Assembly: GCA_038206385.1 (NCBI GenBank) | Contig: JBBRAW010000006.1 | Span: 2,440-66,439 of the forward strand | Length of the DNA stretch: 64,000 nucleotides | Direction: 5' to 3' | Source: Bacteroidia bacterium | Lineage (GTDB): Bacteria; Bacteroidota; Bacteroidia; AKYH767-A; OLB10 | Part shown: piece after piece, positions 6,861 to 64,000 of the stretch | How the letters are laid out: the number at the start of each line of letters is the position of its first letter | How positions within the stretch are numbered: the first letter of the stretch is position 1 | The notes under the pieces: model-generated | Database searches by the model: none | What the model was told of the DNA's origin: nothing | What the model saw: only the letters and a program-made list of their open reading frames with translations | Position numbers and translations under genes: made by a program

Positions 6861-7000
6861 TTATTAATTACTACTAGTTAGAATTATGAAAAAACTCGCA
6901 AACGAAATAATATTTATTACTGGAGGTTTATATTGATGGAGGGTATTTATCTCAGTAACTTTCCTAAGAAAAAATTAAATAAAACAGGAGAAATTCAACA

Positions 7001-7312: not shown

Positions 7313-7364
7313 TTTCAAAACAATATCAATAATAGATTGTTCACTTCATCTAATATATAATTAA

Positions 7365-7808: not shown

Positions 7809-8180
7809 TTTAACTTTATGCTTTTCCTTAGATTCTTCTAGAGTTACCAATTAATAAGAGTAATTACTTAAATTGTTTATGCTTCTTTTATAAATTATTT
7901 AAACTGTGGAACCTTTTTCCCGATTATGTAAGCAATTTTAGATTAATAATAAAGATTTGTAAATAACCACTTTTTTTGCCATTTCGTGTACCTTTTACCT
8001 ATAGAATTGAGAGATTGAAACTTTTCACAATATTTGAATTTATAAAAAAAAATTTCGCTATTCATAATTTTAAGATTATATTGAATCTTTTAAATTTAAA
8101 AATCAAGTTCTGCTTGTTAATCAAATACAAAATATTAATTTCACCTAAAGTAATTCTTTGCATAAAATGCTTACAAGCAA

Positions 8181-8642
8181 ATGAACATGCGAATACTTAA
8201 TATATTATTTGCTGATAACGATAAAGATGATTGCATGCTTTTTAAGGATGCAATTCAAGATTTATCTATATCCGCAGAGATACTTAATTTTTATGATGAT
8301 GAGCAATTATTGTATGAATTAAATAATGCAACAATTTTACCTGACATACTATTTCTTGACTTAAACATGCCACGTAAAAATGGGTTTGAATGTTTGAATG
8401 AAATAAAGCAACTTAAAAAATATGATCAACTTCCTGTAATTATTTTTTCAACTTCTTATGAGCAAAATATAGTAAATCTTTTATACAAGAATGGAGCTAA
8501 TTATTATGTTAGGAAACCTGCTGCGTTTTCTGAATTAAAGAAAGTAATTCAAGAAGTTGTTTCGCTTACCCTTAAAGGAAATATTTCACTTCCTGTGAAT
8601 GAAAATTTTGTTCATAGAGAAAAATTAAGAAATAACTCATGA
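8181..8642 (+). CDS. stand-alone CheY-like response regulator receiver
   Basis: 'ILFADNDKDD' then 'LDLNMP' then 'K' receiver signature. Its stop overlaps the start of the next gene (ATGA). Confidence 0.8.
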   Translation: MNMRILNILFADNDKDDCMLFKDAIQDLSISAEILNFYDDEQLLYELNNATILPDILFLDLNMPRKNGFECLNEIKQLKKYDQLPVIIFSTSYEQNIVNLLYKNGANYYVRKPAAFSELKKVIQEVVSLTLKGNISLPVNENFVHREKLRNNS

Positions 8643-30048: not shown

Positions 30049-32990
30049 TTAATTACCGTAACTGATCCTCTTAATTCTTCCGAAATATTTGCATTATCTA
30101 TTATTTGAATATGGTAAACGTACGTTCCATTTTGAACATTTTCTCCATTTACTTTGCCATCCCAATCTGGTCGAGATGCATCGGTTTGATAAATTAAAGT
30201 ACCCCATTGATCATAAATTTTCATTTGTTGAAATGTGAACTGGTCTCCTCGTACACGAAAAATGTCATTCTTACCATCTCCATTAGGAGTAAATGTTGTT
30301 GGAATAAATAATGAATTATTATTATGAATAGAAATAGTTCGCGCAAGGCTATCTCTACAACCATTATAATTTTCTGCGATTAAAATAACTTTATAATTTC
30401 CTATGCTTGAATACGTATATGTAGGATTAATAGCAGTACTACTATTTCCTGCAATTGTTGTGTCTCCAAAAATCCAAGTATAAACATTCGCATTTATCGT
30501 TGCATTTGTAAATGATGTAGGAAATTGTCCGACGAGAGGAGAAATAACTTGAGAGAAATCTGAAATAGGAGTAGGTAACGCAGTGATAGTAACTGTTGCT
30601 CTCTGTGTGGATGTGCAACCATTACTTCCAATCGATTCAATAAAATATGTTTTAGTAGTTGTTATAGGCTGCGTTTGAAAATTATCAGAAACAAGTATCG
30701 ATGTTCCTCCAGTTGCTGTTGAATACCAAGAATAATTTATTCCTATTTGATGTCTTAATTGCAAATCAACAACTGATCCTACACAGACTGATGAATCAGA
30801 AATAGATACTATTGGTGGTGAAGGCAAAACATTAACGAGTACTGAATCAGAATAAACCGTTCCATTATTTTGTGCGATTCCAACTTTATAATATCCACTA
30901 TCGATAGCCACAAACTGTTGCCCCGTTGCTCCATTAATTGCTAACCCATTATAAAACCATTGATTCCCTGTTGGGAAGATGGATGATAAAACAACATTAT
31001 TCCCCTCACAAAAACTTGTTAGTCCATTTGCTGAGATTATCGAACTGGATGTTATCACTATAACTTGAACAACATTCGACTTCGTAACGCAACCGTTGCT
31101 ACTTGTTGCATTCACAAAATAATTTCCACTACTTTTTATATAAATTGCATTTCCATTTAGTGAATTTGACCATAGGTAATTATTGCCTCCTGAAGCGGTT
31201 AATAAAACAGAATCACTCTGTATAATTGTTACGATACCTGCTGGATTTATATTTGGAATTGTAATAATGTAGTTATTGATTGTAGTTGGAGTAGAAACTG
31301 CAGAACATCCAAATGAATTTGTTACTGTTACCGAATAAACACCTGCAGGAATTGTTATGCTTTGCGATGTTGATCCATTCGACCATTTCCATGAAGTGCC
31401 TAAAGATGCAGTTAACATTATCGAATCATTCGGACAAACAGAATTTGATGTTGTTGAAATTGTTGCAGCTGGTTTTGTTTGAAGAGTAATTATTATTGAA
31501 CTTGATTGACCTTTACATCCATTCGAATTTGTTACAGTAACAGAATATGTTCCTGCAGATGAAACATAAATATTTGAAGTAGTATTTCCATTAGACCAAG
31601 CATAAGAGTTTCCTGTTTGTGTAGATAATTTTACAGAATCTCCTTGACAAATAGTAGTTCCATTGCTGGAAGTTAGAGTTGGAATAAATGTTGGCAAAAC
31701 AGTTATAGAAATAATATTAGAACTTGCCGTTGCTCCATTAGAATCAAATGCAGTACATATTAAATTATGAGTTCCTGATGGTAACGGTGCAATTGAAATT
31801 ATTCCATTAATCGAACTGCCGAGTATGGATGATCCTTCCTTGATTGTATAATTTGTTAAGTTGTTTGGAGATGCATTCAAATGAACACTATCTCCAGCAC
31901 AAACTGTTGCACTTACATTAGCAGTCAATACAATTGAAATTAATGATTGCGAAGTGATTTTTCTAATTAAATGATTATTGCAATCTGCAACATATAAACA
32001 CCTATCAAATCTATTGTAGGTTATTCCTGCTGCGTTATTAAATCGTGCTGCTGCACCAACTCCATCTACTGCACCGCTCAATAGTGGAGTTCCAACATAG
32101 GTAGAGACTACACCATTATTTGCAATCTTTCTAACAGTGAAATTAAATCCATCTAAAACATAAATATTATTCATGCCATCCACAGCAATGTCCCACGGAT
32201 AATTAAATTGTGATGTTAATGCAGTGCCATTAATACTTCCTATAATTCCTTGACCAGCAAAAGTGCTAACCATTCCAGCTGGTGTTATTTTTCGAATTAT
32301 ATTATTCCATTCATCTCCAACAATAATGTTTCCATTATTATCTAATTCAATTCCGTAAGGATGATTAAACGTTGCTGCTAATCCTAATCCATCAAGTGCA
32401 CCTGCAATATAAATTGTTCCTGCAAAAGTTGTTACTTGACCATTAAATATTTTTCTAATTACATGTGTATTATAATCTGCTACATAAATAATACTACCAT
32501 CCTCTGTTACTGTTATCCCACTTGAAAATCCAAATTTAGCAACGTTATTTGCGCCATTAGTTGTTCCAAATATTCCAGTACCTGCGATAGTTGTTACATT
32601 TCCTGTTGCATCAATTTTTCTGATTTTATAATTCTTAGTATCGGCAACAAATATATTTCCTAGTGTATCGCATGTAATTCCCCAAGGCTCATTAAACGTA
32701 GCTACATTACCAGCCCCATCCGTACTTCCTACCGCACCTGTTCCTGCCAATGTTGATACAATACCAGAAGTTGTTATTTTACGAATAAGATTATTGTAAC
32801 GATCAGTGATATAAATATTTCCTGATTTATCTGATGTGATTCCATGTGGATTATTAAATCTTACAAGATTACCAATACCATTTGTTGTTCCTACAACTCC
32901 TGCACTTCCAGCAATAGTAGTAACTACTTGAGCATTCATTTCTGAAATCTCTAGCAGAATAAATAATGTTATTAGTAACAGTTTTCTCAT
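30045..32990 (-). CDS. T9SS type-B C-terminal-domain cargo protein with NHL-repeat beta-propeller(s) and Ig/PKD-like domains
   Basis: Signal peptide. About ten 'G..G..DG.G..A.FN.P.GI..D..GNIYV.D..N..IRKI' NHL repeats. Several Ig-like Cys-containing domains. C-terminal 'FIPTTFTPNGDGKNDIFRV' gliding-associated type-B CTD. Confidence 0.8.
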   Translation of the reverse strand: MRKLLLITLFILLEISEMNAQVVTTIAGSAGVVGTTNGIGNLVRFNNPHGITSDKSGNIYITDRYNNLIRKITTSGIVSTLAGTGAVGSTDGAGNVATFNEPWGITCDTLGNIFVADTKNYKIRKIDATGNVTTIAGTGIFGTTNGANNVAKFGFSSGITVTEDGSIIYVADYNTHVIRKIFNGQVTTFAGTIYIAGALDGLGLAATFNHPYGIELDNNGNIIVGDEWNNIIRKITPAGMVSTFAGQGIIGSINGTALTSQFNYPWDIAVDGMNNIYVLDGFNFTVRKIANNGVVSTYVGTPLLSGAVDGVGAAARFNNAAGITYNRFDRCLYVADCNNHLIRKITSQSLISIVLTANVSATVCAGDSVHLNASPNNLTNYTIKEGSSILGSSINGIISIAPLPSGTHNLICTAFDSNGATASSNIISITVLPTFIPTLTSSNGTTICQGDSVKLSTQTGNSYAWSNGNTTSNIYVSSAGTYSVTVTNSNGCKGQSSSIIITLQTKPAATISTTSNSVCPNDSIMLTASLGTSWKWSNGSTSQSITIPAGVYSVTVTNSFGCSAVSTPTTINNYIITIPNINPAGIVTIIQSDSVLLTASGGNNYLWSNSLNGNAIYIKSSGNYFVNATSSNGCVTKSNVVQVIVITSSSIISANGLTSFCEGNNVVLSSIFPTGNQWFYNGLAINGATGQQFVAIDSGYYKVGIAQNNGTVYSDSVLVNVLPSPPIVSISDSSVCVGSVVDLQLRHQIGINYSWYSTATGGTSILVSDNFQTQPITTTKTYFIESIGSNGCTSTQRATVTITALPTPISDFSQVISPLVGQFPTSFTNATINANVYTWIFGDTTIAGNSSTAINPTYTYSSIGNYKVILIAENYNGCRDSLARTISIHNNNSLFIPTTFTPNGDGKNDIFRVRGDQFTFQQMKIYDQWGTLIYQTDASRPDWDGKVNGENVQNGTYVYHIQIIDNANISEELRGSVTVIK

Positions 32991-38350: not shown

Positions 38351-39655
38351 TCAAAGTGTTGCCGAAATACATTCTTTCATTACAAGATCGAGTGTATGAT
38401 TAAGATCGGTATTATTAATAACCATATATTGTTGTTTACTTCCTGATTTACTAAGGTCTTCAAACAACTCCTTGTATTCAGCGGTTAGATTTTGAATGTC
38501 AATACTGCTTAATTCACGTTTACGGCTAAGAATAATTTCAGGAGCAGCATACAGAAATACATTCACATTCGGTTTAAAAAGAAAATAATAAAATAAGCGA
38601 AGAAAGCTTTTCGGTAAAACAATATTTGAACGTTTCGAATCAATAATAAAATCAAAATAATATCGATCATACAACACAGTGTAACCTCTTAATGTATATT
38701 TGAAATAAATGTAATATTGTCCGAATAAATAATCTAAATAATAGTATAGAAACCGAATCAGTGAACTAAGTTTATTCGTATTACTTCCTTGTCGTGGTAG
38801 CTGATTTATTGTTCTCATTTCTGCACTCCTTTTTCCATAACGAATGGAACTAAGAATTGGAAGTAATGATGGACGATGACGTAAAACCTTTACGCGTTGT
38901 CGATATTTTATTTGTAAGCTATCGCGAACACTTTCTAATAATGTTGATTTTCCAGCACCATCAACTCCGCTAAACGTTACAACAATTCCACGATTGTGGA
39001 TCATGTCTCGAAATACATCTGTTATGTATCTTAAAAATTTTATTGCGCGAAAAACTTTATGGTTATCTGAATGTTCAAGTATTTTTTGAATTATCTTTTT
39101 TGATTCTCTTTCGGAAGTAACGAATAATTCGTCTAATGTATTTAAATGCAATTTGTACTTGTGACAGATGTAGCCGAAAATTTCACTTCTTTCCTCTTTA
39201 CTTAAAGAGGTATAATACTGAACATAGCGATCAGGTGTATTAGCTTTGTTTATTAGATTAAAAAGTACAATATATTCGTAATTGTGTTTTAATGCAGCAA
39301 CTTTTATATTCTCCTTTGAAATAATAACATGATTTAGGATATCTTTTGCCTCTAGATAAATAATCCCTTTTCTATCGAAACGATGTATAAGATCTACCTC
39401 TAAGTATGTTCCATCCTTAAAAGAAATATTTACAAATGTTACAAATGATTTTTTATAAACATGAACCCATTCAATATTATCTCCAGCGCGAATTAATTTA
39501 AGAAATTTTATTTTTTCGCTTTCCTTAATTAATAAGTCGATGTCAGAGGAAGTTGGTATTTCATCAATAAATTCATGCGTGAATTTTAACAAAGCGTATC
39601 GAAAATCCGAAGCTCCTTTAAAAAAGTAATGCAAAAATTCTTTTCGATGACTCAT
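38351..39655 (-). CDS. two-domain protein: N-terminal minimal-nucleotidyltransferase-like domain and C-terminal P-loop kinase-like domain
   Basis: 'IPTSSDIDLLI' resembles the GS...[SD]DIDL NTase-fold motif. 'VVTFSGVDGAGKSTLLESV' is a Walker A of thymidylate/deoxynucleoside-kinase type. No glycosyltransferase features. Confidence 0.55.
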   Translation of the reverse strand: MSHRKEFLHYFFKGASDFRYALLKFTHEFIDEIPTSSDIDLLIKESEKIKFLKLIRAGDNIEWVHVYKKSFVTFVNISFKDGTYLEVDLIHRFDRKGIIYLEAKDILNHVIISKENIKVAALKHNYEYIVLFNLINKANTPDRYVQYYTSLSKEERSEIFGYICHKYKLHLNTLDELFVTSERESKKIIQKILEHSDNHKVFRAIKFLRYITDVFRDMIHNRGIVVTFSGVDGAGKSTLLESVRDSLQIKYRQRVKVLRHRPSLLPILSSIRYGKRSAEMRTINQLPRQGSNTNKLSSLIRFLYYYLDYLFGQYYIYFKYTLRGYTVLYDRYYFDFIIDSKRSNIVLPKSFLRLFYYFLFKPNVNVFLYAAPEIILSRKRELSSIDIQNLTAEYKELFEDLSKSGSKQQYMVINNTDLNHTLDLVMKECISATL

Positions 39656-41037
39656 ACGTTGGTCGCTGAATTATCAGCAATATGTGTTATGTCTTCAAGA
39701 GCTTCTAGCCACGCATCCATCATCCATTGACTCTGCGTTAGCAATTCAGTTTCATTAATATATTGCCGTAAATAATAACTTACATTAAACAAAAGATACA
39801 AACGATAATTTAATGCTGTATTAATTTTATACTTATGAACGATCTGCTTGATGAGAGGTGTTTGTTGCCATTTTTGTACTGACTTTATTACATCATTATA
39901 TTTTTTTTGATGCTGAAGAATTGTTGATTGAAAAGTGAAGTGGTATAAATCGAACAACATTGGGATTCCGTTTCGAGCTAATTCCCAATCATAAACATAT
40001 AAACGTTGATCATCACAATACATATTCCAAGGAGTGAAGTCGCCATGAGAAACAGAAACTGCGATTTCATCTGTTACAGAAATACTATTGTAAACTTTTG
40101 TAAGTAAATAAATAATTCGCTTTGTCTTGGCCGTATTTAGTCCATTTGAAAATAGCAATTCTTGTTTTAAGAATTCCATGTTGTTGATGATGGTATGCCA
40201 TGCAACACTTTCCATTATCATTTTACGTTCATGACTAATATTATACAATTCTGCCATCACCTTTGCGTGAATTGAGGTAATACGATCTGCCGAAATCACA
40301 ATGCCCGGCTTCACATTACTGATACGCGCATTTCCATTAATCTTCTTCGAGAGTTTCGGTAGACTTAATGTTGTGAAATCATATTTTCCAAGCGCAGTAA
40401 GCATTTCTATTTCGTTTTGTACTAGTGACTTTGAATGTTTTGTTAGTGGGATTTTCACAAAGCCTGAACAGCTTGATTTATCGTGAATTTCCATTACCGT
40501 TTTGCGAGTTGCTCCTCTTGTTCCAGTGAAGAATGATACAGATTCATGTTGCATCACTCCGTTAAGTTGTTTTACTCGTTCTAGTAGATTTTGTTGCAGA
40601 TAAATAACCCCAGAAGCAAGTCGTTGCTCTTGCCCAATTTTCCACGCTAGGTGGCTAAGTTTTTTATAAAACCTTCCCTTCCAAGTTGCTGTATTGTAGA
40701 GTGATAAGTATCCCGCATGTTTATCGTCAGCTAGAAAAAGCCAACGCATCGTACCATCAGGATTATTAATAAAATAAATTTTTATTGTTTCTTCTCCAAT
40801 AGAAAGTCCCGCATAAAGCGCATTTTCAACGTTACCATCGGGATTAAAACCAGAAGTTAAATCGACATAAAACAAAGTCTCATCTTCTTGAAATATTGGT
40901 TCTTGCAATAGTCGAAAATCAATGTTCTGAGCGACCGTTAATCGGTGATAAGGATCAAAAATGGCAAGTGTTTTCTTCTCAGGCGAAAAAATATCACGCA
41001 GCAGAACTAGATCGGAAAGATATATAGGTTTTTGCAT
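39652..41037 (-). CDS. aminoglycoside/choline-kinase-like (APH-fold) phosphotransferase with an unrecognised ~200-aa N-terminal domain
   Basis: Catalytic loop 'SHGDFTPWNM' and 'VYDWE' (H-G-D-x4-N ... D) typical of the APH/ChoK family. The track start at 41073 overlaps the upstream gene by 80 nt, so an internal ATG (41037) is used. Confidence 0.6.
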   Translation of the reverse strand: MQKPIYLSDLVLLRDIFSPEKKTLAIFDPYHRLTVAQNIDFRLLQEPIFQEDETLFYVDLTSGFNPDGNVENALYAGLSIGEETIKIYFINNPDGTMRWLFLADDKHAGYLSLYNTATWKGRFYKKLSHLAWKIGQEQRLASGVIYLQQNLLERVKQLNGVMQHESVSFFTGTRGATRKTVMEIHDKSSCSGFVKIPLTKHSKSLVQNEIEMLTALGKYDFTTLSLPKLSKKINGNARISNVKPGIVISADRITSIHAKVMAELYNISHERKMIMESVAWHTIINNMEFLKQELLFSNGLNTAKTKRIIYLLTKVYNSISVTDEIAVSVSHGDFTPWNMYCDDQRLYVYDWELARNGIPMLFDLYHFTFQSTILQHQKKYNDVIKSVQKWQQTPLIKQIVHKYKINTALNYRLYLLFNVSYYLRQYINETELLTQSQWMMDAWLEALEDITHIADNSATNV

Positions 41038-42313
41038 TGGATTCCGTACTCCGATATATACGTGATGAAACACCTAATGGTTCGATACTAATTGTAATAA
41101 CAATTAAGAGATAAAAAAGAATTCCATAATTTGTTTCACCAAAGATTCCGAACTCTGTTAATGAGTTTATGAGTAATGGAATAAAAATTAATAACGCAGA
41201 CGTTTTTTGTGCTTTATCAGGATGTGTTAAAAGTGCATGTAAGAAAGTACTTAGCTGTGATAGCACTAACAACAATCCTACTAATCCTAGTCCTAATAAT
41301 ACTTGTAAAAAAGTATTATGAGTCATGGCTCCTGAATATGCATTCAGTGATTCAAATTTATCGGCATAATCGATTCGCATATATCCAAAACCAAACCAGG
41401 GTTCACGCGGGAAATTATACGTCAATAAATCTTTCCAAAACGGAATTCTTCCTGTCATACTCATTACCTCTTCTGCATTACTTTGTTTTACAAAAATTTG
41501 ATATCCAAGCAATGGAATTGTGAGTATTAACAAACTTCCTAAGGCGATCTTAAATGCTTTCGATTGTTGTTTATATCCATAAAGTCCAATTACTAAAAGC
41601 ATCGAAATAAAAGAAGAGCGAGATCCAGTTAGAAAGAGTAAATAAATTAATCCTCCAATAATAAATATAGATCGAACGCTATATTTATTATCCTTAAATA
41701 ACATTGGTAACATTACTGCTATTCCTACAACAAGCAACATTCCTAGCTCATTTGGATTAATAATATATCCACCTAATCGTGATACTTCGCCACCATGTGT
41801 TAGTCGATAATATTGATCTGGGTCTAAAACTTTACCTATTGCAAACCATGCTGCAATTAATGCTATTGCTGGTGCAATAATTTTATGCAATTCGAAATAC
41901 CCTCCTGGATACAAGGATTTACATGCTAATACTAATCGCATAAAAAAGAATGCAAATACAAAGCTTTCAATATCCATAAATATTTGTAGCAACGAATATT
42001 TAAAAGAGCTTGTCCATAATAAAGATGCAATACCCAAAACTAAATATCCAAAATATAACCAGAGTGGCAAAGGGTATTTAATTTTATAAAGTGGCTTATC
42101 ACTTCGCATTTGTTGAATAATACTTGCTGTAATAACAGTAATTGTTAATGTCGTTCGCAAACCTGCTTTTAATGCTTGTGTTATTATTAAATCTTCTGAC
42201 AAAACGAAGTAACTAATGATTCTTAAAAGAATTATCGAAACAAGAAATACTCGAAATCCAGGAGCAGGATTCTTATAGATCGCTTTAGCGTTCATAAAGG
42301 AGTTATGCTGCAT
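40994..42313 (-). CDS. O-antigen ligase/polymerase family membrane protein (Wzy-like)
   Basis: About 11 TM helices with a large loop carrying R/H residues, as in Wzy_C. Confidence 0.8.
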   Translation of the reverse strand: MQHNSFMNAKAIYKNPAPGFRVFLVSIILLRIISYFVLSEDLIITQALKAGLRTTLTITVITASIIQQMRSDKPLYKIKYPLPLWLYFGYLVLGIASLLWTSSFKYSLLQIFMDIESFVFAFFFMRLVLACKSLYPGGYFELHKIIAPAIALIAAWFAIGKVLDPDQYYRLTHGGEVSRLGGYIINPNELGMLLVVGIAVMLPMLFKDNKYSVRSIFIIGGLIYLLFLTGSRSSFISMLLVIGLYGYKQQSKAFKIALGSLLILTIPLLGYQIFVKQSNAEEVMSMTGRIPFWKDLLTYNFPREPWFGFGYMRIDYADKFESLNAYSGAMTHNTFLQVLLGLGLVGLLLVLSQLSTFLHALLTHPDKAQKTSALLIFIPLLINSLTEFGIFGETNYGILFYLLIVITISIEPLGVSSRIYRSTESNAKTYISFRSSSAA

Positions 42314-43500: not shown

Positions 43501-44763
43501 TTAAAGATGTTTTAATTCTTTACGAAGACTAAACAAATAAATAAATAAGGTGATAAGTTGAGTGATCATTAGTCCAGCAACAATTCCATAAATTCCAAAT
43601 GATTTAATAATTGGATAAGCACACAATACGCTAAAAACAGAACTCGCTATGAACGAAATAAATATCAGTCTTGTTTTTTCTAATGTTCTTATGGCATATC
43701 TCAGAGGATATCCTAAAAATACGATTACATACAAACCACAAAAACAAACAAGCAGATGACGGTATTCAATGAAATCATTTCCATAACATGCATGAATAAT
43801 TTCGCTACTAAAAATAGCAATTAATCCAAGCATTGTTAATGTGATGCATCCCATTTGCAATGTAAATTTCCAGAGATAACGAAACATCATATCCTTACCA
43901 CCAATTCGTTGAAAGTTGGCTGCTCTTGCAGGAATAATATTTTCCATTGCAAGAAACAAAACATGTGTAACTCCAACAATATTTTGTGCCATTCGTGTAG
44001 CACCTACTGCTTGTGGACCAAGTATTGCTCCAGCGGCAATGATAAATAAGTTTCCAGAAAACCATTGCAATAGTGCAGTTGCTGTTAGCCATTTACTAAA
44101 ATCCCAATGCTCTAAAAAAGTTTCTTTAATGTGTTGCAAATTAAATCGTAGTTCTTTAAGCGACCATAACGCAACGAGCGATGCGTATAAAAAGAAAACA
44201 GCCGTTAATAATAATACAAATTGTGCATCCATTGCTCTAACAAAATGAATACAAAATGCACTAACCAATACTCCGCCATAAGCAATTGTATCAATAATTA
44301 TAGAGATGTGTGGCTTACCAGTTACAAAAAAATATCGTCGAAAGAAATCTTGCAACAAGAAAGAAAATACTGCTAATGGAAATGCAAGGATTATACTTTC
44401 TACTTTCCAAGTCTTTAAAACATAACCCATAAATATTACAGTAATAAAAGACAAGATGCCCATCAATGCTGCAAATAATATTTGTTTAATTACTAAGGCT
44501 TGTAAATAATTTTCCTGTTGCTCTGGCGATTTTTTTCCACTCAGCGTTTGCATTGGTGCTATGATGAAAGGTTGATTAATGCTACTAGCAATTAAAACAC
44601 CGATCCAAGCAATGCTATAAATACCAAAACCATTTATTCCAAGATATCGTGCTAACACAATGCTCGATAAAAAACTAAAGCCACTAACAATAGCTTGATC
44701 CGCATAAACCAGTGCTGTACTGTTACGCCTTAAAAGTTTAGGTATTGCAATGGAAATATTCAT
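43501..44763 (-). CDS. MOP-superfamily oligosaccharide flippase (Wzx)
   Basis: About 12 TM helices with the polysaccharide-biosynthesis-protein family layout. Confidence 0.8.
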   Translation of the reverse strand: MNISIAIPKLLRRNSTALVYADQAIVSGFSFLSSIVLARYLGINGFGIYSIAWIGVLIASSINQPFIIAPMQTLSGKKSPEQQENYLQALVIKQILFAALMGILSFITVIFMGYVLKTWKVESIILAFPLAVFSFLLQDFFRRYFFVTGKPHISIIIDTIAYGGVLVSAFCIHFVRAMDAQFVLLLTAVFFLYASLVALWSLKELRFNLQHIKETFLEHWDFSKWLTATALLQWFSGNLFIIAAGAILGPQAVGATRMAQNIVGVTHVLFLAMENIIPARAANFQRIGGKDMMFRYLWKFTLQMGCITLTMLGLIAIFSSEIIHACYGNDFIEYRHLLVCFCGLYVIVFLGYPLRYAIRTLEKTRLIFISFIASSVFSVLCAYPIIKSFGIYGIVAGLMITQLITLFIYLFSLRKELKHL

Positions 44764-48927: not shown

Positions 48928-49893
48928 TTATCTTGGTCCCATAAATCTATCTCCATTAAAGTGAATCATGTGCTCTGGCACATCAGCCAGCCACACTTCA
49001 GTTTCCCAAGCAATATTATTGGAGTGTTTTTTGAATTCTGCGAAATCAGGAAATGCTGTTACATAAATTTTTCCCGCTTTACAATTTTTTAAAAATTCTT
49101 CTAGTTCAATAACTCGTTTTGGTGAAACAGGTCCATGTGATGTAACTGCTTCGATTAAAAACAACCAGTTCTTTGTATGATCATAAATGATAACATCTGG
49201 TAGTTTGTTGTGTTGATTTACTGGAATGCCCAATTCTTTCAACATTTTTTTGTCAACATATAAATCTTTTTTTGCAGTATCGCCCAAATATAAGATCGAT
49301 CCGCCATTTGCAAAACGTGCTGCAAAATTGTGAACTATGGCTGCTTGAACTTCGTTATGTTTTCCCGCAGATAATTTTAATGTTTTACCATTACTAAGTT
49401 TAACAGGAATTAAAATTTGTTTTCGTTCTTTTTTATATTTTTTTGATAGATCGCCTTCTTCAGATATAAATTTGCCAACTGCTTTTTTCCACTCTTTTGT
49501 TCCAAATGTTTTGATTGCGTCTAATGCGCCTTGTGTTAAAGCGTAGTGAGCATTTGGGCTGTTTACTGGCAGTTTCGGGTTATCTGGATTATAGTCTGCT
49601 ATCCTTGCTTGAACAAATTGATGCAACACTTGCCTACGAAAAGTTTCACGAGAATTGGGAGCATATTCTCTCCCATAAAAATCATACACAAAAGCCATAA
49701 TCCCTTTCGAAATTTTTTGACTTGTTTTTGTTACTTTATTCCATTTATTACGTGGTTTAATTCCTCCCAACGCTAAAAGTGTATATGCAGATGTGTCGTT
49801 TTGCTGGGCTATCGGCAGTCCAAGTTCTTTCAAAATCATTTTTGCTTCGTCTAGTTTACTCATATAGGCTTGTTGCGAGTTCAAATTGTTCAA
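48928..49893 (-). CDS. type II restriction endonuclease, BsuBI/PstI family
   Basis: Size (~320 aa), position directly after a gamma-class N6A methyltransferase with an 8-bp ATGAGTAA overlap (if start at 49863), and a C-terminal 'LFLIEAVTSHGPVSPKR' core typical of the family. Confidence 0.7.
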   Translation of the reverse strand: MNNLNSQQAYMSKLDEAKMILKELGLPIAQQNDTSAYTLLALGGIKPRNKWNKVTKTSQKISKGIMAFVYDFYGREYAPNSRETFRRQVLHQFVQARIADYNPDNPKLPVNSPNAHYALTQGALDAIKTFGTKEWKKAVGKFISEEGDLSKKYKKERKQILIPVKLSNGKTLKLSAGKHNEVQAAIVHNFAARFANGGSILYLGDTAKKDLYVDKKMLKELGIPVNQHNKLPDVIIYDHTKNWLFLIEAVTSHGPVSPKRVIELEEFLKNCKAGKIYVTAFPDFAEFKKHSNNIAWETEVWLADVPEHMIHFNGDRFMGPR

Positions 49894-51442
49894 TTACCTT
49901 ATTGTTTGCATTTTCTACCGAAAAATCATTTGAAAGAATGATGTTTTTCCCAATTTCTATTATTGTTTCAAGTTCAGGCAGTGGGAAATCCCTAAGTTCT
50001 GTCGCACTTACATTTACGTTTCCGTTAAATATTCTGAAATAGGAATCGAAGAGAGTGCTATTTAGTAAAGCACACAATCCAATAATTTCATTTCTATCCA
50101 AATGACCTTTGGGACGATAAATATAATTTACTTTATTCTCAACACCAATGTATTCTGATTTAATAAAATTACAGAAGTAGGGAGCTGCAATTAATCTACT
50201 CTTATCATCTTTACTACTGAAACGCCTTAGTAAAATATAATTTTTGTTTGGAATTAAAATAGATTTTGATTCATTTTCAATGCTTATATATTGTCCTTTC
50301 TCAGGCTTTGGAAGAGGCCATTCCAAAATCATTTGTTTTATATTATGCAGCCAAAATAATGGAGCAAGAAACACTGTTCCATTTTGGTAGTTGTCTTGAA
50401 TATATTCTTTGCTTCTAAAACCAACAACAGGACCTGTTGAAATTTGAATATTATATTTATTTAAATTTCCGTTCCATTTTTTGAAAATATTTAAAATAGA
50501 TTCTTCAAAATCATTGGTTGGCAAATAAAGGATTTTTTCATTTGAATTTAAATCAATCAATACTTTTTGCTTGAATGTTTTTGTTTGGGGCGTAAGAATG
50601 TCTTTTAATCCCTGAGATGATGAAATGATAACATTATGATTGGGATTGTTTTTTTCTTTTCGTTTTCCATTAATAATTACAGTTTCCTGTAATACCTTGT
50701 CTCTATTAAATGTGTCTTTACGGGAAACGAATAAATGCACATTATCGATCTCAATGATTTTAAAAAAGTATTCGCGAAATAATTTGAAATAACTTCCAGA
50801 AGCGAAGCTTCGGGGAGTTATAAAAATAAGTTCTCCATTTTCTTTAAGCAGTCTAGCGGAAACAGCCATAAAAATGGCATATATATTCGGATGCCCATTT
50901 ACAACCCTTTTAGCAGCTATAGAACGCTTGTCGTCTATAGAGAGTTTAAAATAAGGAGGATTAGAAATGATTATATCAAACGGCTCTGTTTTTTCTGAAA
51001 ACATATTTATATTTTCTGAAAGACAGTTGGCATTTTCCAAAACAAAATCATTTGTATTAAGCAAATAATTAAATTTAATTTTCTTTGATTGCAACCATTC
51101 CTTTATATAATCAAGTGATTTTTTTGTTAGCGGAATTAAATTATTGTCCGTTTCATAAACTACTAATTCTATAAATTGAATATTTTTATTTGTTGCAAGT
51201 CGTTCTATTAAGGCGCAAGTCAAAATTGCTGTTCCACAACCTGGATCAAGAATTCGCAAAAAAGTATTTGAAGTGTTTGCAAAGGATCCCATTAGTTTGG
51301 CAATTTCTACAGGCGTAAAAAATTGTCCGTTTTCTTTTTTGTGTTCCTGATTTACTGTTGAAGCATAATAAATCCCCAACCTGTCGGCAAAATGACTCGG
51401 TAGCTCGTTTGCTAAAGGTTGTATAGAATTATTATTTGCCAT
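49856..51442 (-). CDS. N6-adenine DNA methyltransferase (Eco57I/M.PstI-like, gamma class)
   Basis: 'FFTP' then SAM motif I 'ILDPGCGTAILT' then catalytic 'IIISNPPY'. Start taken at the internal ATG (MANNNS), overlapping the C-gene stop by 11 nt. Confidence 0.85.
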   Translation of the reverse strand: MANNNSIQPLANELPSHFADRLGIYYASTVNQEHKKENGQFFTPVEIAKLMGSFANTSNTFLRILDPGCGTAILTCALIERLATNKNIQFIELVVYETDNNLIPLTKKSLDYIKEWLQSKKIKFNYLLNTNDFVLENANCLSENINMFSEKTEPFDIIISNPPYFKLSIDDKRSIAAKRVVNGHPNIYAIFMAVSARLLKENGELIFITPRSFASGSYFKLFREYFFKIIEIDNVHLFVSRKDTFNRDKVLQETVIINGKRKEKNNPNHNVIISSSQGLKDILTPQTKTFKQKVLIDLNSNEKILYLPTNDFEESILNIFKKWNGNLNKYNIQISTGPVVGFRSKEYIQDNYQNGTVFLAPLFWLHNIKQMILEWPLPKPEKGQYISIENESKSILIPNKNYILLRRFSSKDDKSRLIAAPYFCNFIKSEYIGVENKVNYIYRPKGHLDRNEIIGLCALLNSTLFDSYFRIFNGNVNVSATELRDFPLPELETIIEIGKNIILSNDFSVENANNKVIEQFELATSLYE

Positions 51443-51740
51443 TTTTATTTTTAATAATATAATTAATTTTCTTTTCGGCAACTTGCATAGCCTTTAAAGC
51501 TACTTCTTCGTCTCTAACTTCATAAACCAATTTGTCACTAAAAAATGATATAAGTAATTCGTTCTCGTCTTTTCCAAAAAATTTGGCAATCCGTTTTACT
51601 TGATCTTTTGTTGGCATTCGTTCGTTGCGTTCGATTTTACTTAACAAGGCTTGGTCAATTTCAATTACTGCTGCAACTTGTCTAAGTAATAGAGAATTCT
51701 GTTCTCTCAATTCTCTAATTATTTCTCCTATGCTTTTCAA
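51432..51740 (-). CDS. XRE-family HTH controller (C) protein of the R-M system
   Basis: 102 aa, HTH 'LRQVAAVIEIDQALLSKIERNERMPTKDQVKRIA'. It is the first gene of the C-M-R operon, with a TTG start at the track boundary. Confidence 0.7.
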   Translation of the reverse strand: MKSIGEIIRELREQNSLLLRQVAAVIEIDQALLSKIERNERMPTKDQVKRIAKFFGKDENELLISFFSDKLVYEVRDEEVALKAMQVAEKKINYIIKNKNGK

Positions 51741-59157: not shown

Positions 59158-60153
59158 ATGAGTTTTAAATCAGTAGCAGTAATTGGTGGTGGAAGTTGGG
59201 CAACAGCGATAGTAAAAATTTTGTCTAACAACGTAAGTGAAATTCATTGGTGGTTGCGTAGTGAAGAATCCGTAACTTTTATTAATCGTTACCAGCATAA
59301 TCCAAATTATTTAAGTGACGTTTCACTTGATTTATCGATCGTAAAACCAAGTACTAATTTAGAGCAAATTATTGATTCATCCGAATGTGTTGTGCTTGCA
59401 ATTCCAGCAGCTTTTTTAAAAAACACATTGTCATCATTACCTGTTACTATCTTTAAAAATAAAAAAGTTTTTTCTGCAATAAAAGGAATTGTTCCGGAGC
59501 ATAATTTAATTGTTGGTGAATATATGCACTCGCATTTTGATGTGCCATTCGAACAAATTGGTGTCCTTACTGGTCCATGCCATGCAGAAGAAGTTGCACT
59601 TGAAAAATTATCTTATCTCACTGTTGCTTCTCCTAATTCAAACAACGCATCTGCATTAGCATCAGTACTCAATTGTCGTTATATTAAAACAAGTATTTCG
59701 GATGATATCTATGGAACTGAATATGCCGCGGTATTAAAAAATGTGATGGCGATTGCAAGTGGAATATGTAACGGCTTAGGCTTTGGCGATAACTTTCAAG
59801 CGGTATTAATATCAAATGGTATTCGTGAAATAAAACGTTTTGTAGATGCAGTACATCCTATCAAAAGAGATATCAATGATTCTGCTTATTTAGGTGATTT
59901 ATTGGTTACTGCATATTCTCAATTTAGTAGAAACAGAACTTTTGGAGCCATGATTGGTAAAGGCTATTCGGTGAAATCGGCACAATTGGAGATGAATATG
60001 GTTGCAGAAGGGTATTATGCTGTTGCATGTATCTACGAAATCAATAAAAAATTTAAAGTTGAAATGCCCATTTGTCTGGCGGTTTATAACATCCTTTACG
60101 AAAAAAATAGCCCTCGATTAGAGATAAACAATCTTGTTGACACTTTTAATTAA
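59158..60153 (+). CDS. gpsA: NAD(P)H-dependent glycerol-3-phosphate dehydrogenase
   Basis: Rossmann 'VAVIGGGSWATA' plus a GpsA core 'GPCHAEEVA' and 'KNV.AIA.G'. Confidence 0.9.
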   Translation: MSFKSVAVIGGGSWATAIVKILSNNVSEIHWWLRSEESVTFINRYQHNPNYLSDVSLDLSIVKPSTNLEQIIDSSECVVLAIPAAFLKNTLSSLPVTIFKNKKVFSAIKGIVPEHNLIVGEYMHSHFDVPFEQIGVLTGPCHAEEVALEKLSYLTVASPNSNNASALASVLNCRYIKTSISDDIYGTEYAAVLKNVMAIASGICNGLGFGDNFQAVLISNGIREIKRFVDAVHPIKRDINDSAYLGDLLVTAYSQFSRNRTFGAMIGKGYSVKSAQLEMNMVAEGYYAVACIYEINKKFKVEMPICLAVYNILYEKNSPRLEINNLVDTFN

Positions 60154-60401
60154 GAAAAAGAACCCTATTTACTTCCTAAATACCGGTTCAAATAACAAGA
60201 TTTTTTCCCGTTCCCCCTCTGTTTTTACCCATTGAGATTGTTTATGCTCCTATTCCTAATAAAATACAAATAAAATCAGTTGATAGTGTTAATTAAATTC
60301 CTATATTTAGGTCAACCTATCTGCTTGTCAATTCTTTAAGATATTAACAAATTTTCATTGTTGATATCAATAAATTCTTGATAAATATGTGTGATTATAT
60401 C

Positions 60402-63400
60402 ATGATTGGGTTTATAAAAAAATTCAGAATGGTCAAACGCTTACTTATCTGTTTATCCGTACTGTTATTGCCTTTTGTTTCAAATGCACAAACGTATTTG
60501 ATGAGCAATACTACTGTGAATACTTGTGCTGGTACTTTTTATGACTCTGGCGGAAGCGCTGGAAATTATGCTAACAATGCAAATTCTACAATGACTTTTT
60601 GTTCAGGAATAGCAGGAAATTGTGTACGCCTACAATTTACTTCTTTGAATATTGAGAGAGGATATGATTCTATTTTTATCTACAATGGTGCAAGTATTTT
60701 GTCTCCTGTTCTTGCAAGATTATCAGGTAATATTGGAACAATAACTTATACTGCAACAAGTGGATGTTTAACTATTCGTTTTGTTTCTGATGGATCTATC
60801 ACCGCTCCTGGTTGGTCGGCTAGTATTAGTTGTGTTAATTGTGCAACTGGTGGATGTGTCACTACTTGTAGCTCTGGTATTCCGCCAATAAATGATGCGT
60901 GTTCTGGTGCGATAAACATTGGTGCATTACCTGCTCCGGCTGCTTGTGCAAGTGGAGGTTTAGGTGCTGTATCAATAACAAATGGTTCCAATTTTTGTGC
61001 TACTGCCGAAACTCCATATACAACTATTTTAGGTTGTCAACCTTCTGGAAATATGCCTAGTCCCTCTGCGGATGTATGGTATCAATTTAGTATTACTGGT
61101 CCAATTTTAAATGTGTCGATAGCTGGTTTACAAACACCAAGTATTGGAATTTATTCAGGAAGTTCATGCGCAACAATGATTCCTCGAAATTGTGCAGTAG
61201 GAAGTGCGGGATCATTAAACACAACATTTGTTGGATTAACTCCAGGAAATTATTATTTACAATTAAGTGGTGCAAACGTGAATGATCAATGTGATTTTTC
61301 TTTATCACTTCAAAATAATTTTGATTGCAATCAATGTGTAAACGTAAGTACATTAGGTGCAGTTCCTTCGCCAGTAAATGGAACTTATTCTCCCGGACAA
61401 ACAGTTAATTTTTGCTATACGATTAATAGTTATAATCAATCGGCAGTAAATTGGTTGCATGGTGTTGTTCCAATTTTTGGTCCTGGTTGGGATATGAGTA
61501 CGCTTACAACTTCAGCTCCTGTTAGTTGTTCAGGAAGTGGAACATGGAGTTGGTATAATACACCAATAACGAGTAGTCAAACAGGTCAAGTAAATGGGCC
61601 AGGTTTCTTTTTTGAAACAAGTATTGGAAATGCCGCTGGAGTTTTAGATGGAAATCCTGGAAATAATTTTGGAGATAATAATGGAGGCGGATGTACCTGG
61701 ACTTTTTGTTGGACGATCAAAACTTTACCTCAATCAACATGTGTTCCTGGCGTAAGTTTAAGTATGGGTGTTGATACAAAAGGCGATGGTGAATCTGGAA
61801 GTTGGAGTAATTTAGGATGCGTTGGTGATCCAATAGTTTCTTTGCCTGCAACTACATCTTGTTGTCCTCCTCCAACATTGGCTATCACTGATCCTACATG
61901 TGCGGGTTCAACAAATGGTTCTGTAATAGCAACTGGTCAAGGCACAGCACCATGGACTTATGTTTGGAAAAATTCAGCAGGTGTAACAGTTCAAACTGCT
62001 GGTAGTGTAAATGGGCCAAACACAATAAATAGTTTGGCAGCGGGAAGTTATTCAGTAACTGTTACAAATGGTACTGGATGTACTGCAACTGTTTCGTTTG
62101 CATTAGTAACACCACCTGTTTTAAATGCTGTTATCAATGTAACTCCCGTTACCTGTAATGGAGGATTAAATGGTACTGCAAATATTGTTGCGAATGGTGG
62201 ATCTCCTGGTTATGCATACGCTTGGTCCCCATCAGGAGCAGGTGCTTCTTCAACGGGATTAGCTGCTGCAACCTATACTGTTACTGTAACGGATTTAAGA
62301 GGTTGTACCTACAAAGTCACAGGAGTAATAAATCAACCTGCAGCAGTTACAGCAACCATTTCGGCATCAACAAATATTTTATGCAATGGCGGTACAAATG
62401 GTAGTGCAACTGTTACTCCTGGTGGAGGAACTGCAGGATATACTTATTTATGGTCGAATGGAAATACTAACGCAACAGCAACAGGATTAGCAGCGGCAAC
62501 TTATACAGTAACTGTTACTGATAGCAAAGGATGTACAAAAAGTACAACAGTTGTTATTGCACAACCAACTATTATAAATTTAAATTTAAATGCAACGGCT
62601 GCAAGTTGTGGTGTAAATAATGGAACAGCTTCAGTAATTGCCGCTGGAGGAACAGGAGCATTTCAATATGCATGGTCACCTGCTGGTGGAACAGGAGCTA
62701 ACGCAAATGGTATTGGATCAGGAGGATATTCTGTTGTTGTAACGGATGCAAATGGATGTACGGCTTTAGGAAATATTGTTGTTCCCAATTTAACAGGTCC
62801 CACAGCAAGTATTTCCACATTTAATGGTGTTACATGCTTCGGTGGAAACAATGGCTCAGCAACTGCAACTGCAATTAACGGAACACTTCCATATAATTAT
62901 GTTTGGTCTACAGGAGCATTAACTGCAACAGTAAATAATTTAGTTGCAGGAACTTTTACGGTAACAGTTACTGATGGAACAGGTTGTACATCTAATGCGT
63001 CTGTCATCATTGCACAACCACCAATTGTTACTTCAAACATAAATGGTAACACTCCTGTAAATTGTTTTGGTTCAGCCAACGGATCATTAACAGTTCAAGC
63101 TGGTGGTGGAACACCAAACTATTCCTATGTATGGTCGAATGGAAATACAACTACAAATCCTATTGGATTACTAGCAGGAAATTATACCGTTACAGTTACA
63201 GATAATAATGGATGTACTATGACTGCTAATACAATTGTTGCGCAACCACCATTACTACTTATCTCAGTTCCTTTAATCACAGATGTAACTTGTAATGGAG
63301 GAACGAATGGTGCTGCAACAGCAACTGGTGTTGGAGGTTTACTTCCTTATAGTTATGTATGGTCGACTGGATCAATTAATAATTCTATAACAGGATTGGC

Positions 63401-64000
63401 TGCGGGTAATTATACTGTTACTGTTTCTAACGGAAATAGTTGTACTGCTCAAACAACAATTACTATCAATCAACCTGTAGCTGTAACAGGAGCAATTAGT
63501 TCAAGTTCAGATGCAACATGTAATGGTACTGCAACAGGAAATGCAACAGTTACTGTAACTAATGGAATAGCTCCAATAAATTATGCATGGTCTCCTTCGG
63601 GTGGTAATGCTGCAAGTGCTACTAATTTAAGTGCTGGAAATTATTCCGTTTTAATTACTGATGCAAATGGATGTACAACGAGTACTCCAGTAACCATCAA
63701 TGAACCGAATCCATTATTAGTCACGCTCGTTTCACAAACAAATGTTTTGTGTAATGGAGGAAGTACAGGAGCTGCTACGATTTCTGCAAGTGGTGGAACA
63801 CAAAATTATAATTATGCATGGACACCTTCTGGTGGAATAGGATCAACAATTTCTTCTGTAACATTCGGAACGTATACTGTTACCGTTACTGATGCAAATG
63901 GATGTACAAATAATTTACCAGTAACAATTACAGAACCAACATTACTTGTTGCACAAATTTTAAACAATACTCCAGCACTTTGTAATGGTGATGCAACAGG
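60402..64000 (+). CDS. very large secreted cell-surface protein: signal peptide, CUB-like domain, Cys-rich domains, and 14 or more SprB-type repeats. 3' end lies beyond the window.
   Basis: Hand translation in frame 60402 (alternative ATG 60429, signal 'MVKRLLICLSVLLLPFVSNAQT') shows no stop through position 64000. The CUB-like segment is 'CAGTFYDSGGSAGNYANNANSTMTFCS...VRLQFTSLNIERGYDSIFIYNG'. It is followed by about 80-aa repeats with the pattern 'C.G..NG.A......G..PY.Y.WS.G......I..L.AG.Y.V.VTD.NGCT' (SprB repeat). It is absent from the ORF track only because it has no stop in the window. Confidence 0.8.
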   Translation, partial: MIGFIKKFRMVKRLLICLSVLLLPFVSNAQTYLMSNTTVNTCAGTFYDSGGSAGNYANNANSTMTFCSGIAGNCVRLQFTSLNIERGYDSIFIYNGASILSPVLARLSGNIGTITYTATSGCLTIRFVSDGSITAPGWSASISCVNCATGGCVTTCSSGIPPINDACSGAINIGALPAPAACASGGLGAVSITNGSNFCATAETPYTTILGCQPSGNMPSPSADVWYQFSITGPILNVSIAGLQTPSIGIYSGSSCATMIPRNCAVGSAGSLNTTFVGLTPGNYYLQLSGANVNDQCDFSLSLQNNFDCNQCVNVSTLGAVPSPVNGTYSPGQTVNFCYTINSYNQSAVNWLHGVVPIFGPGWDMSTLTTSAPVSCSGSGTWSWYNTPITSSQTGQVNGPGFFFETSIGNAAGVLDGNPGNNFGDNNGGGCTWTFCWTIKTLPQSTCVPGVSLSMGVDTKGDGESGSWSNLGCVGDPIVSLPATTSCCPPPTLAITDPTCAGSTNGSVIATGQGTAPWTYVWKNSAGVTVQTAGSVNGPNTINSLAAGSYSVTVTNGTGCTATVSFALVTPPVLNAVINVTPVTCNGGLNGTANIVANGGSPGYAYAWSPSGAGASSTGLAAATYTVTVTDLRGCTYKVTGVINQPAAVTATISASTNILCNGGTNGSATVTPGGGTAGYTYLWSNGNTNATATGLAAATYTVTVTDSKGCTKSTTVVIAQPTIINLNLNATAASCGVNNGTASVIAAGGTGAFQYAWSPAGGTGANANGIGSGGYSVVVTDANGCTALGNIVVPNLTGPTASISTFNGVTCFGGNNGSATATAINGTLPYNYVWSTGALTATVNNLVAGTFTVTVTDGTGCTSNASVIIAQPPIVTSNINGNTPVNCFGSANGSLTVQAGGGTPNYSYVWSNGNTTTNPIGLLAGNYTVTVTDNNGCTMTANTIVAQPPLLLISVPLITDVTCNGGTNGAATATGVGGLLPYSYVWSTGSINNSITGLAAGNYTVTVSNGNSCTAQTTITINQPVAVTGAISSSSDATCNGTATGNATVTVTNGIAPINYAWSPSGGNAASATNLSAGNYSVLITDANGCTTSTPVTINEPNPLLVTLVSQTNVLCNGGSTGAATISASGGTQNYNYAWTPSGGIGSTISSVTFGTYTVTVTDANGCTNNLPVTITEPTLLVAQILNNTPALCNGDAT

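Follow-up and report, generated by a model that had tools for sequence, protein, structure and literature searches.

Introduction

Which described systems come closest to the locus reported here? F. johnsoniae SprB, a protein of about 6500 aa encoded in a sprC-sprD-sprB-sprF locus, is a long surface fibre of repeats of the PF13573 family and carries a secretion signal of the CHU_C class. [quoted passage not shown] Fibrillar adhesins combine a stalk of tandem Ig-like repeats with a terminal adhesive domain, the adhesive head being placed N-terminally on the repeat stalk (PMC8286594, PMC9210967).

The gene described here lies at the end of the window, by which we mean the whole 64-kb stretch of DNA that was analysed. 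With a probability of roughly 0.75, we read it as the 5' half of a gene that encodes, in an uncultured Bacteroidota bacterium of low GC content, a long surface fibre. This would be a fibrillar adhesin and an orphan type-B substrate of the T9SS, whose head, composed of a CUB domain, a galactose-binding-domain-like (GBD) beta-sandwich and a further domain, Y, sits on a stalk of SprB repeats. [quoted passage not shown] This is a known kind of protein, and no new mechanism or system is involved. What it would add is a conserved gpsA-adjoining locus whose product, a type-B T9SS fibre, bears a lectin-like head of three domains.

Results

Reading frame, start and upstream region

The features of the locus are as follows, with residues numbered from 60402 throughout:

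60154..60428, + strand: AT-rich intergenic region between gpsA, which ends at 60153, and the gene, presumably containing the promoter and 5' UTR
60429..64000, + strand: coding sequence, 5' part only; open frame from a conserved ATG, alternative start ATG 60402
60429..60488, + strand: Sec/SPI signal peptide (MVKRLLICLSVLLLPFVSNA followed by Q); read from the sequence, conserved A↓Q, AlphaFold helix
60492..60839, + strand: CUB domain, residues ~31-146; Pfam, AlphaFold and Foldseek
60840..60881, + strand: short Cys-rich linker (CVNCATGGCVTTCSSG...); from the translation, lower pLDDT here (73-78)
60882..61316, + strand: GBD-like beta-sandwich, residues ~161-305; homolog transfer and AlphaFold
61317..61862, + strand: domain Y, residues ~306-487, a disulfide-rich beta-sandwich of 180 aa; AlphaFold
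61863..63998, + strand: SprB-repeat stalk, nine complete units and the start of a tenth; PF13573
61863-62117, 62118-62345, 62346-62573, + strand: SprB units 1-3
62574-62798, 62799-63026, 63027-63254, + strand: SprB units 4-6
63255-63482, 63483-63713, 63714-63941, + strand: SprB units 7-9
63942-63998, + strand: SprB unit 10, partial

The initial annotation had proposed a continuous + strand frame of more than 1190 codons, and on retranslation 60402-64000(+) is indeed a single frame that stays open for 1199 codons, without a stop, up to the window end; across these 3.6 kb the other five frames contain 44-87 stops, and the closest in-frame stop 5' of the frame is at 60345. Over this region the ORF track lists only five short ORFs, four of them antisense and one on the + strand in a different frame, since the track omits any ORF that extends past the end of the source. 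A large secreted CUB-plus-SprB-repeat gene of adhesin-like build had thus escaped the track, as had been suspected, and probably about half of it lies beyond the window end.

Scans of genome and metagenome contigs yielded four close relatives, L003 (98% identical), L001 (91%), L002 (76%) and L016 (75%), all of which align collinearly. They show that the coordinates first given hold for the frame and not for its start: the ATG at 60402 is a GTG in L001 and absent from L002 and L016, and the ATG at 60429 (MVKRLL...), conserved in L001, L002 and L016, is the only start that the window frame shares with the latter two, so the true start is probably 60429, 27 nt downstream of the one initially assigned. 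The predicted N-terminus has the n/h/c pattern of the signal peptide that had been called there, with a basic n-region and a hydrophobic LLICLSVLLLPFV followed by SNA↓Q, as read from the sequence; AlphaFold models a helix at residues 6-21. The A↓Q cleavage site is kept among relatives and fits the Bacteroidetes Q-rule, by which signal peptidase I exposes an N-terminal Gln (PMC5837995).

Upstream of the gene, the window encodes SRPBCC, DinB and gpsA, a setting repeated in four related loci; gpsA is the direct upstream neighbour in all five (the window, L001, L002, L016 and L025). The intergenic region 60154..60428 contains a sole approximate Bacteroidota -7-like motif, TATATTTA at 60302, which we dropped as informative promoter evidence since it is imperfect. 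On contig L025, the protein encoded just downstream of gpsA is P0108 (2494 aa), which is 49% identical to the window protein and collinear with it over residues 4-1180; judged by sequence and position, it is the positional ortholog. The gene is real, conserved and under purifying selection, with a dN/dS of 0.107 against L001 and values of 0.06-0.12 in every module.

A three-domain head

The CUB-like domain that had been assigned to the N-terminus is recovered by Pfam and has the corresponding fold. PF00431 matches residues 72-141 with 26.0 bits, a modest margin over the cutoff of 21.4, and its scores in relatives are 35-120 bits. In Foldseek, the AlphaFold model of the domain (pLDDT ~85-95) matches CUB1 of neuropilin-2 (6gh8_A) with a TMt of 0.82 and an rmsd of 1.9 A, with further matches to a spermadhesin (1spp_B, 0.80) and the TSG-6 CUB domain (2wno, 0.76); a sequence search of the PDB gave marginal matches only, to a phage Ig-like protein (E 0.0017) and the PCPE-1 CUB domain (E 0.05). 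An acidic triad, E85/D89/D129, in the canonical motif contexts ..lE, yD.i.iy and f.SD.s, is kept in most CUB-bearing relatives, with P0108 having Asn at the third position. A Glu/Asp/Asp triad at the ligand-binding end marks the Ca2+-binding subset of CUB domains; by motif context, and not by structural superposition, the triad is a candidate Ca2+ site, and binding may be Ca2+-dependent.

The region that follows had been described as Cys-rich modules; apart from the short linker, it is in fact a GBD-like domain and the disulfide-rich domain Y. In the window protein itself, residues ~161-305 give a weak match to GBD_IRG7_N (E 0.77) and none to PF23759 GBD_T9SS_assoc at E<=1. Two homologs with 38-46% identity over this region, P0025 (30.5 bits) and P0056 (30.0 bits), reach the cutoff of 27 for PF23759, and the corresponding region of P0018 (29.5 bits) reaches the Pfam cutoff for GBD_IRG7_N. 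The modelled region is all-beta (pLDDT 79-95), its invariant residues are W226, G253, C256, G282, Y284 and F299, and multidomain Foldseek searches return the CUB+discoidin part of neuropilin and the collagen-binding domains of ColG.

The best of these multidomain matches are the neuropilins (E 3e-12), metazoan CUB-plus-discoidin receptors with an a1a2b1b2 organization. As in the window protein, their CUB part precedes a galactose-binding-like beta-sandwich, and the CUB acidic triad adds to the likeness. However, identity amounts to 11-25%, and with a global TM of about 0.2 the domain arrangement is not shared; the likeness is one of domain composition and is no evidence for common descent of the whole architecture. 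CUB and GBD domains bind ligands in other proteins, and binding is predicted for those of the window protein.

Domain Y has no match in Pfam or NCBIfam, and an NCBIfam scan of the whole window protein matched no family. Modelled alone, Y reaches a pLDDT of 90.3 and a pTM of 0.87. Its closest structures belong to the CLIPPER (DUF11)/CnaA-like isopeptide domains found in the stalks of adhesins and pilins (9ifr; bioRxiv 10.1101/2025.04.25.650565), with which it shares a beta-sandwich topology; the best PDB match, CLIPPER 9ifr, is weak (E 1.8e-4, TM 0.36/0.51, 12% identity), and pilins come next. These matches prompted an isopeptide-bond reading of Y, which we ruled out: in an alignment of 49 Y sequences, no column has Lys in >=50% of sequences, the two Lys of the window protein being 2-11% conserved, and the defining isopeptide bond, formed by a Lys-Asn/Asp pair with a catalytic acid, is therefore absent. 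Y has conserved cysteines instead, with C309, C312, C338, C436 and C473 conserved at >=98%.

In a census, Y occurred in 629 cluster representatives with a threshold of E<=1e-3 and in 468 with E<=1e-10, and among 28 Y-bearing proteins CHU_C and SprB repeats each occur in 14. Tentatively, and at somewhat less than even odds, we propose that the CUB-GBD-Y head, and above all Y, is an undescribed module that binds ligands at the tips of T9SS fibres and is reused widely among Bacteroidota, carried here by an orphan type-B adhesin with an unlinked shuttle. If so, the Y family and its ligand would offer a handle on what these abundant Bacteroidota of freshwater and other environments attach to. As an unannotated domain family, Y is a candidate for curation.

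The SprB-repeat stalk and its missing 3' end

The stalk matches PF13573 with 204 bits (E 1.3e-61, cutoff 28) in nine stretches. With unit boundaries delimited by hand, nine complete units span residues 488-1180, with 19 residues of a tenth unit in the window; the period is 76 aa, the first unit having 85 aa. The assignment to SprB repeats made in the initial annotation is therefore correct, the count of at least 14 units of ~80 aa is not. Two Cys are conserved in every unit. The repeats are old and have diverged, to pairwise identities of 29-53% at the protein level and 45-62% at the DNA level; Tandem Repeats Finder sees no DNA tandem array over them because the units are too diverged. For the same reason the units in the window do not explain the assembly breaks, which we infer to come from more similar repeat copies further downstream.

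In genome and metagenome contigs, the sequences of all four close relatives break off within the array, where their contigs end: L001 and L003 end 22-30 residues past the window end, and L016 and L002 extend beyond it by 139 and 297 residues, both free of stops. The scans did not recover the source contig. What would speak for a decaying pseudogene or a chimera assembled from repeats is that none of the close assemblies contains the complete gene. However, 1199 codons are free of stops, the dN/dS against L001 is close to 0.11, four independent assemblies align collinearly and without gaps across the same 1199 residues, and the repeats in the window are too diverged for misassembly there, so that this reading is hardly credible and already largely refuted. 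The breaks bear on gene catalogues instead: with five of five contigs breaking inside the array, a large surface-protein gene can vanish from ORF tracks and assemblies alike, so that counts of adhesins in uncultured Bacteroidota are probably too low.

What may follow the array can be seen in longer relatives. In P0108, the head is followed by SprB repeats, called as 15-19 stretches, and then by a pair of PKD domains and CHU_C, and the same domain order is found in P0111, P0124 and P0109; CHU_C scores are 58 bits in P0108 and 58-67 bits (cutoff 27) among these four full-length CUB-SprB proteins. The type-B CTD (PF13585/TIGR04131) expected for the gene is thus present in its positional ortholog and three further relatives; for the gene itself, whose 3' end lies beyond the window, it is predicted from an ortholog of no more than 49% identity. 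By the same four relatives, the stalk would reach about 20 or more repeats before ending in two PKD domains and CHU_C.

Alternatively, the protein could be a type-A cargo with a Por_Secre_tail (PF18962), handled by PorV and either released or covalently attached to anionic LPS. Such ends do occur, in the GBD+Y-head proteins P0018, P0057 and P0076 and in a SprB-repeat protein, L005. Yet the relatives with a type-A end are smaller and less closely related, with 36-44% identity over the head only, and the ortholog and the three other full-length CUB-GBD-Y-SprB proteins all end in PKD-PKD-CHU_C, which renders a type-A end improbable.

As anything could be encoded in the half of the gene beyond the window, the repeat stalk might also carry a C-terminal toxin or enzyme, for instance a polymorphic toxin or else a glycoside hydrolase, rather than serve adhesion, and SprB-repeat T9SS substrates are enriched beside TANFOR polymorphic-toxin genes (PMC7073777). 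However, the SprB-repeat proteins of that study are neighbours of toxins and not toxins themselves, the N-terminus has no TANFOR domain, and Pfam finds a catalytic or toxin domain in none of the four full-length counterparts. We therefore rejected the polymorphic-toxin reading and consider a C-terminal toxin or enzyme very improbable in general.

Secretion context and comparison with SprB

Elsewhere in the window, 30045-32990(-) encodes an NHL-Ig_7-PKD-CHU_C protein, a canonical type-B cargo, and the translationally coupled 27811-30048(-) encodes a PorP_SprF-TSP3-OmpA protein; from this pair, the genome uses the type-B T9SS pathway. Export of the adhesin via the Bacteroidota type IX secretion system is almost certain. 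In the mechanism that we propose, Sec would carry the protein across the inner membrane, the T9SS translocon would recognise the type-B CTD, and a shuttle of the PorP/SprF family, encoded elsewhere in the genome, would take the protein over from the translocon, making it an "orphan" type-B substrate. Its C-terminus would hold it on the outer membrane, such that the stalk projects the N-terminal head from the cell. There the head would bind its ligand, for which glycans and proteins are the likeliest candidates.

In this the locus would resemble the F. johnsoniae orphans: the ortholog has a type-B CTD without an adjacent porP or sprF, and a PorP/SprF-family gene lies elsewhere in the genome of the window. 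Unlike the unlinked shuttle Fjoh_1677, the PorP_SprF protein of the window is translationally coupled to another cargo. An sprF/porP-like gene had been expected directly downstream; on L025, the only contig on which this can be examined, P0108 is followed instead by a convergent gene for a hydrolase-like protein of 322 aa with a faint Abhydrolase_2 match, and then by DUF2238.

Could the protein do what SprB does in F. johnsoniae, as a gliding-motility adhesin that is loaded onto an SprF-like carrier and propels the cell by travelling along the helical gliding track? This would be a special case of the orphan type-B adhesin. With SprB the window protein shares the repeat family, the logic of a long surface fibre and, to judge from P0108, the CHU_C secretion-signal class, and both the repeats and the type-B CTD of the ortholog would suit a gliding adhesin. 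The locus differs: there is no sprC or sprD upstream, gpsA taking that place in all five loci, the ortholog has no sprF downstream, and the CUB-GBD-Y head is specific to the family of the window gene. Moreover, the ortholog, at about 2500 aa, is much shorter than SprB. Among the genes adjoining the adhesin gene we found no gld, spr or T9SS core genes, nor did we find gliding genes in the 64-kb window. The window gene shares domains with SprB and is not its ortholog, and a role in gliding, if the least remote of the alternatives, is unlikely.

In our literature search, we found no papers that discuss CUB domains together with T9SS, and the SprB repeat (PF13573) received passing mentions only. 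The combination is nonetheless not as rare as the initial annotation had implied: CUB-GBD-Y-SprB proteins recur in public data, and NCBI's automatic annotation already calls some of them "CUB domain-containing protein".

Reading frame and constraint

The adhesin-like gene (60402-64000, plus strand) reads through 1199 codons to the end of the window without a stop; the nearest in-frame stop upstream lies at 60345, and the five remaining frames across the same 3.6 kb carry 44-87 stops each, which puts an open frame of this length far beyond chance. The initial annotation, which had described a continuous plus-strand frame, was right in this, as it was in remarking that the ORF track misses the gene: only five short ORFs appear there, four antisense and one on the plus strand in a different frame, because the listing leaves out ORFs running off the source. 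Against its relative on contig L001 (91% identical), the protein aligns gap-free over all 1199 residues, with an overall dN/dS of 0.107; the gene is functional and constrained. The initial observation is nonetheless only partly confirmed, its start coordinate and repeat count needing correction. Among three candidate ATG codons (60387, 60402 and 60429), 60429 (MVKRLL...) alone is common to the relatives on L002 and L016, and L001 has GTG at the position of 60402, the start originally given. The true start is likely 60429.

Modules of the encoded protein (plus strand; residues numbered from 60402; dN/dS against L001)
~31-146: CUB domain, Pfam 26.0 bits (cutoff 21.4); dN/dS 0.114 with the signal peptide
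Directly after the CUB domain: short, Cys-rich linker
~161-305: galactose-binding-domain-like (GBD) beta-sandwich, from matches of relatives to PF23759; dN/dS 0.059
~306-487: domain Y, no profile match, all-beta in AlphaFold; dN/dS 0.108
488-1199: SprB stalk, PF13573 E 1.3e-61 in 9 stretches; dN/dS 0.119

Head and stalk

The N-terminus, MVKRLLICLSVLLLPFVSNA followed by QTY, shows, as read, the n/h/c arrangement expected for cleavage by signal peptidase I, and its A-Q junction is kept across relatives, matching the Bacteroidetes Q-rule (PMC5837995). With a 54-sequence alignment as input, AlphaFold modelled residues 1-495 at a mean pLDDT of 87.6, and Foldseek paired the CUB domain of this model with neuropilin-2 CUB1 (6gh8_A; TMt 0.82, rmsd 1.9 Å, 25% identity), spermadhesin (0.80) and TSG-6 (0.76). 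Both the signal peptide and the N-terminal CUB-like domain proposed initially are thereby borne out. Glu85, Asp89 and Asp129 lie at positions which, from the surrounding motifs, we take for the Ca2+-binding CUB triad; they are kept in most relatives, the third position being Asn in the relative P0108. This suggests, by analogy, Ca2+-dependent binding.

The GBD region itself gives only a marginal GBD_IRG7_N match (E 0.77), but relatives 38-46% identical across it attain the cutoff of PF23759, "GBD_T9SS_assoc". Domain Y found no match in Pfam and NCBIfam scans. Modelled alone it is confidently all-beta (pLDDT 90.3, pTM 0.87), and its PDB neighbours are weak (TM 0.3-0.5): CLIPPER 9ifr (E 1.8e-4) comes first, and pilins and adhesins of Gram-positive bacteria follow. 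These neighbours are isopeptide-bonded CnaA-like domains (bioRxiv 10.1101/2025.04.25.650565). Topology is common to both, whereas the defining chemistry is not: the alignment of Y holds no conserved lysine, and five cysteines are conserved at ≥98%. Searched for exhaustively with HMMER, Y turned up in 629 cluster representatives (468 at E≤1e-10), in proteins of up to ~3500 aa. It usually begins near residue 165, where signal peptide and GBD precede it, or near residue 295, where a CUB domain stands between those two. Among 28 Y-bearing proteins, 9 carry CUB, 14 SprB repeats and 14 CHU_C, the type-B C-terminal sorting domain (CTD) of the T9SS.

Small stand-alone heads of 426-428 aa (signal peptide, GBD, Y) occur on contigs L020 (6371-8807) and L021 (9944-12367), sharing 44% identity with the window protein and lacking a recognised CTD; they are of the same class as the related proteins P0019-P0024, which lack Pfam matches, and the same two small ORFs (187 and 190 aa) follow them on both contigs. 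P0004, an apparently complete 515-aa "CUB domain-containing protein" on a 163-kb contig, has neither stalk nor CTD and consists of nothing beyond the CUB-GBD-Y head (query coverage 98%); the head may exist here as a module of its own, or the gene may be split.

For the stalk, at least 14 tandem ~80-aa SprB repeats had been proposed; the repeat family holds, but delimitation by hand gives nine complete units, the first of 85 aa and the others of 75-77 aa, before the array runs 19 residues into a tenth. Two cysteines are conserved in every unit; units are 29-53% identical at the protein level and 45-62% at the DNA level, where the stalk shows no detectable tandem array.

The combination of CUB and SprB, initially noted as not commonly described, recurs in sequence data: 16 of the top matches have CUB and the same head, and NCBI already labels some relatives "CUB domain-containing protein", although the searchable literature yielded no discussion of it. 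The result is a sound annotation of a gene of an ordinary type; the one possibly new piece is domain Y as an uncurated family.

The missing 3' half

How does the gene continue beyond the window? The closest loci, L003 (98% identity), L001 (91%), L002 (76%) and L016 (75%), each stop at a contig end within the SprB array. L001 and L003 end ≤30 residues from the window end and the three closest assemblies break in repeat 10, no more than ~30 residues apart, suggesting a shared assembly break there. The repeats within the window are too diverged to account for this; near-identical copies starting just downstream probably do. The five assemblies, which are independent, break at ~63998 (window), 13663 (L001), 2856 (L003), 7102 (L002) and 13993 (L016).

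More distant relatives are full-length. One of them, P0108 (2494 aa, contig L025), is collinear with the window protein over residues 4-1180 at 49% identity; further SprB repeats follow, bringing the stretches called to 15-19, and after them come two PKD domains and CHU_C (58 bits), a domain order shared by P0111 (2574 aa), P0124 (2905 aa) and P0109 (1431 aa). As in the window, gpsA lies immediately upstream, preceded by an SRPBCC gene; these common neighbours mark P0108 as a positional ortholog, and gpsA is also directly 5' of the gene on L001, L002 and L016. Most likely, the window gene extends ~1300 residues further and ends in a type-B CTD. The initial interpretation is therefore partly supported: orthology favours its predicted type-B CTD, but neither the supposed rarity of the architecture nor the sprF/porP-like gene expected next downstream is supported, where the P0108 contig instead has a convergent hydrolase-like gene.

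In 4/4 comparisons (window 59158-64000), the gene has diverged more rapidly than the adjacent housekeeping gene gpsA.

Protein identity, gpsA vs adhesin
L001: 94 vs 91%
L002: 87 vs 76%
L016: 86 vs 75%
L025: 68 vs 49%

Proposed export and role

The flanks of the gene are housekeeping (dUTPase, nucleotidyltransferase, TPR protein, DUF4292, M23 peptidase, SRPBCC, DinB, gpsA), and a canonical type-B pair lies ~30 kb upstream (27811-32990, minus strand), the cargo gene overlapping the shuttle gene's start by 4 nt:

30045-32990, minus: type-B cargo, 981 aa, NHL-repeat/Ig_7/PKD/CHU_C
27811-30048, minus: PorP_SprF shuttle (152 bits), 745 aa, PorP_SprF-TSP3-OmpA

In the latter, thrombospondin type-3 repeats follow the PorP_SprF domain and an OmpA peptidoglycan-binding domain forms the C-terminus, making it a shuttle and PorE-like anchor in a single polypeptide. 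The pair shows that type-B T9SS secretion is in use in this organism and that PorP/SprF-family shuttles are present.

Behind a Sec signal, sequence and models place three beta-sandwich domains as the head, and then the repeat stalk. A type-B CTD would route the protein through the T9SS, where an unlinked PorP/SprF-like shuttle would take it over; the precedent is Flavobacterium johnsoniae, in which 3/12 type-B substrates are "orphans" sharing the unlinked shuttle Fjoh_1677 (PMC12618676). The C-terminus would then hold the protein at the outer membrane, the head projecting outward to bind ligand, as CUB and GBD folds do in other proteins; fibrillar adhesins are laid out in this way (PMC8286594, PMC9210967). 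The protein may serve static adhesion or track-driven gliding. With F. johnsoniae SprB it shares the repeat family and, presumably, the CTD class, and some orphan type-B substrates there do ride the gliding track (PMC12618676); the locus, however, lacks the sprCDBF context, and operon context argues against SprB orthology.

Other features of the window

The type-B pair lies on the edge of a polysaccharide-synthesis cluster. This long co-directional run of glycosyltransferases (26719-47831, minus; GT4 and several GT1) also encodes a Wzy_C O-antigen-ligase-like protein and a Wzz/P-loop chain-length regulator, and is probably a surface-polysaccharide locus; Pfam gave no match for a number of the ORFs in it, 39652-41073 and 43501-44763 among them. 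Between 6050 and 8180, ~2.1 kb contain no ORF of ≥150 aa, and 6001-8000 has the window's lowest G+C (0.281). One 1252-aa protein (8181-12397, plus) joins CheB methylesterase and CheR methyltransferase to PAS domains and a histidine kinase; its gene is preceded by that of a stand-alone response regulator, with rpoN (16-1194), a sigma-54 activator (4631-6049, minus) and a hybrid kinase (3074-4522, minus) nearby. A type II restriction-modification pair (48928-51481, minus) overlaps by 38 nt:

49856-51481, minus: Eco57I/N6_Mtase-like methylase, TTG start called
48928-49893, minus: BsuBI/PstI-family endonuclease, TTG start called
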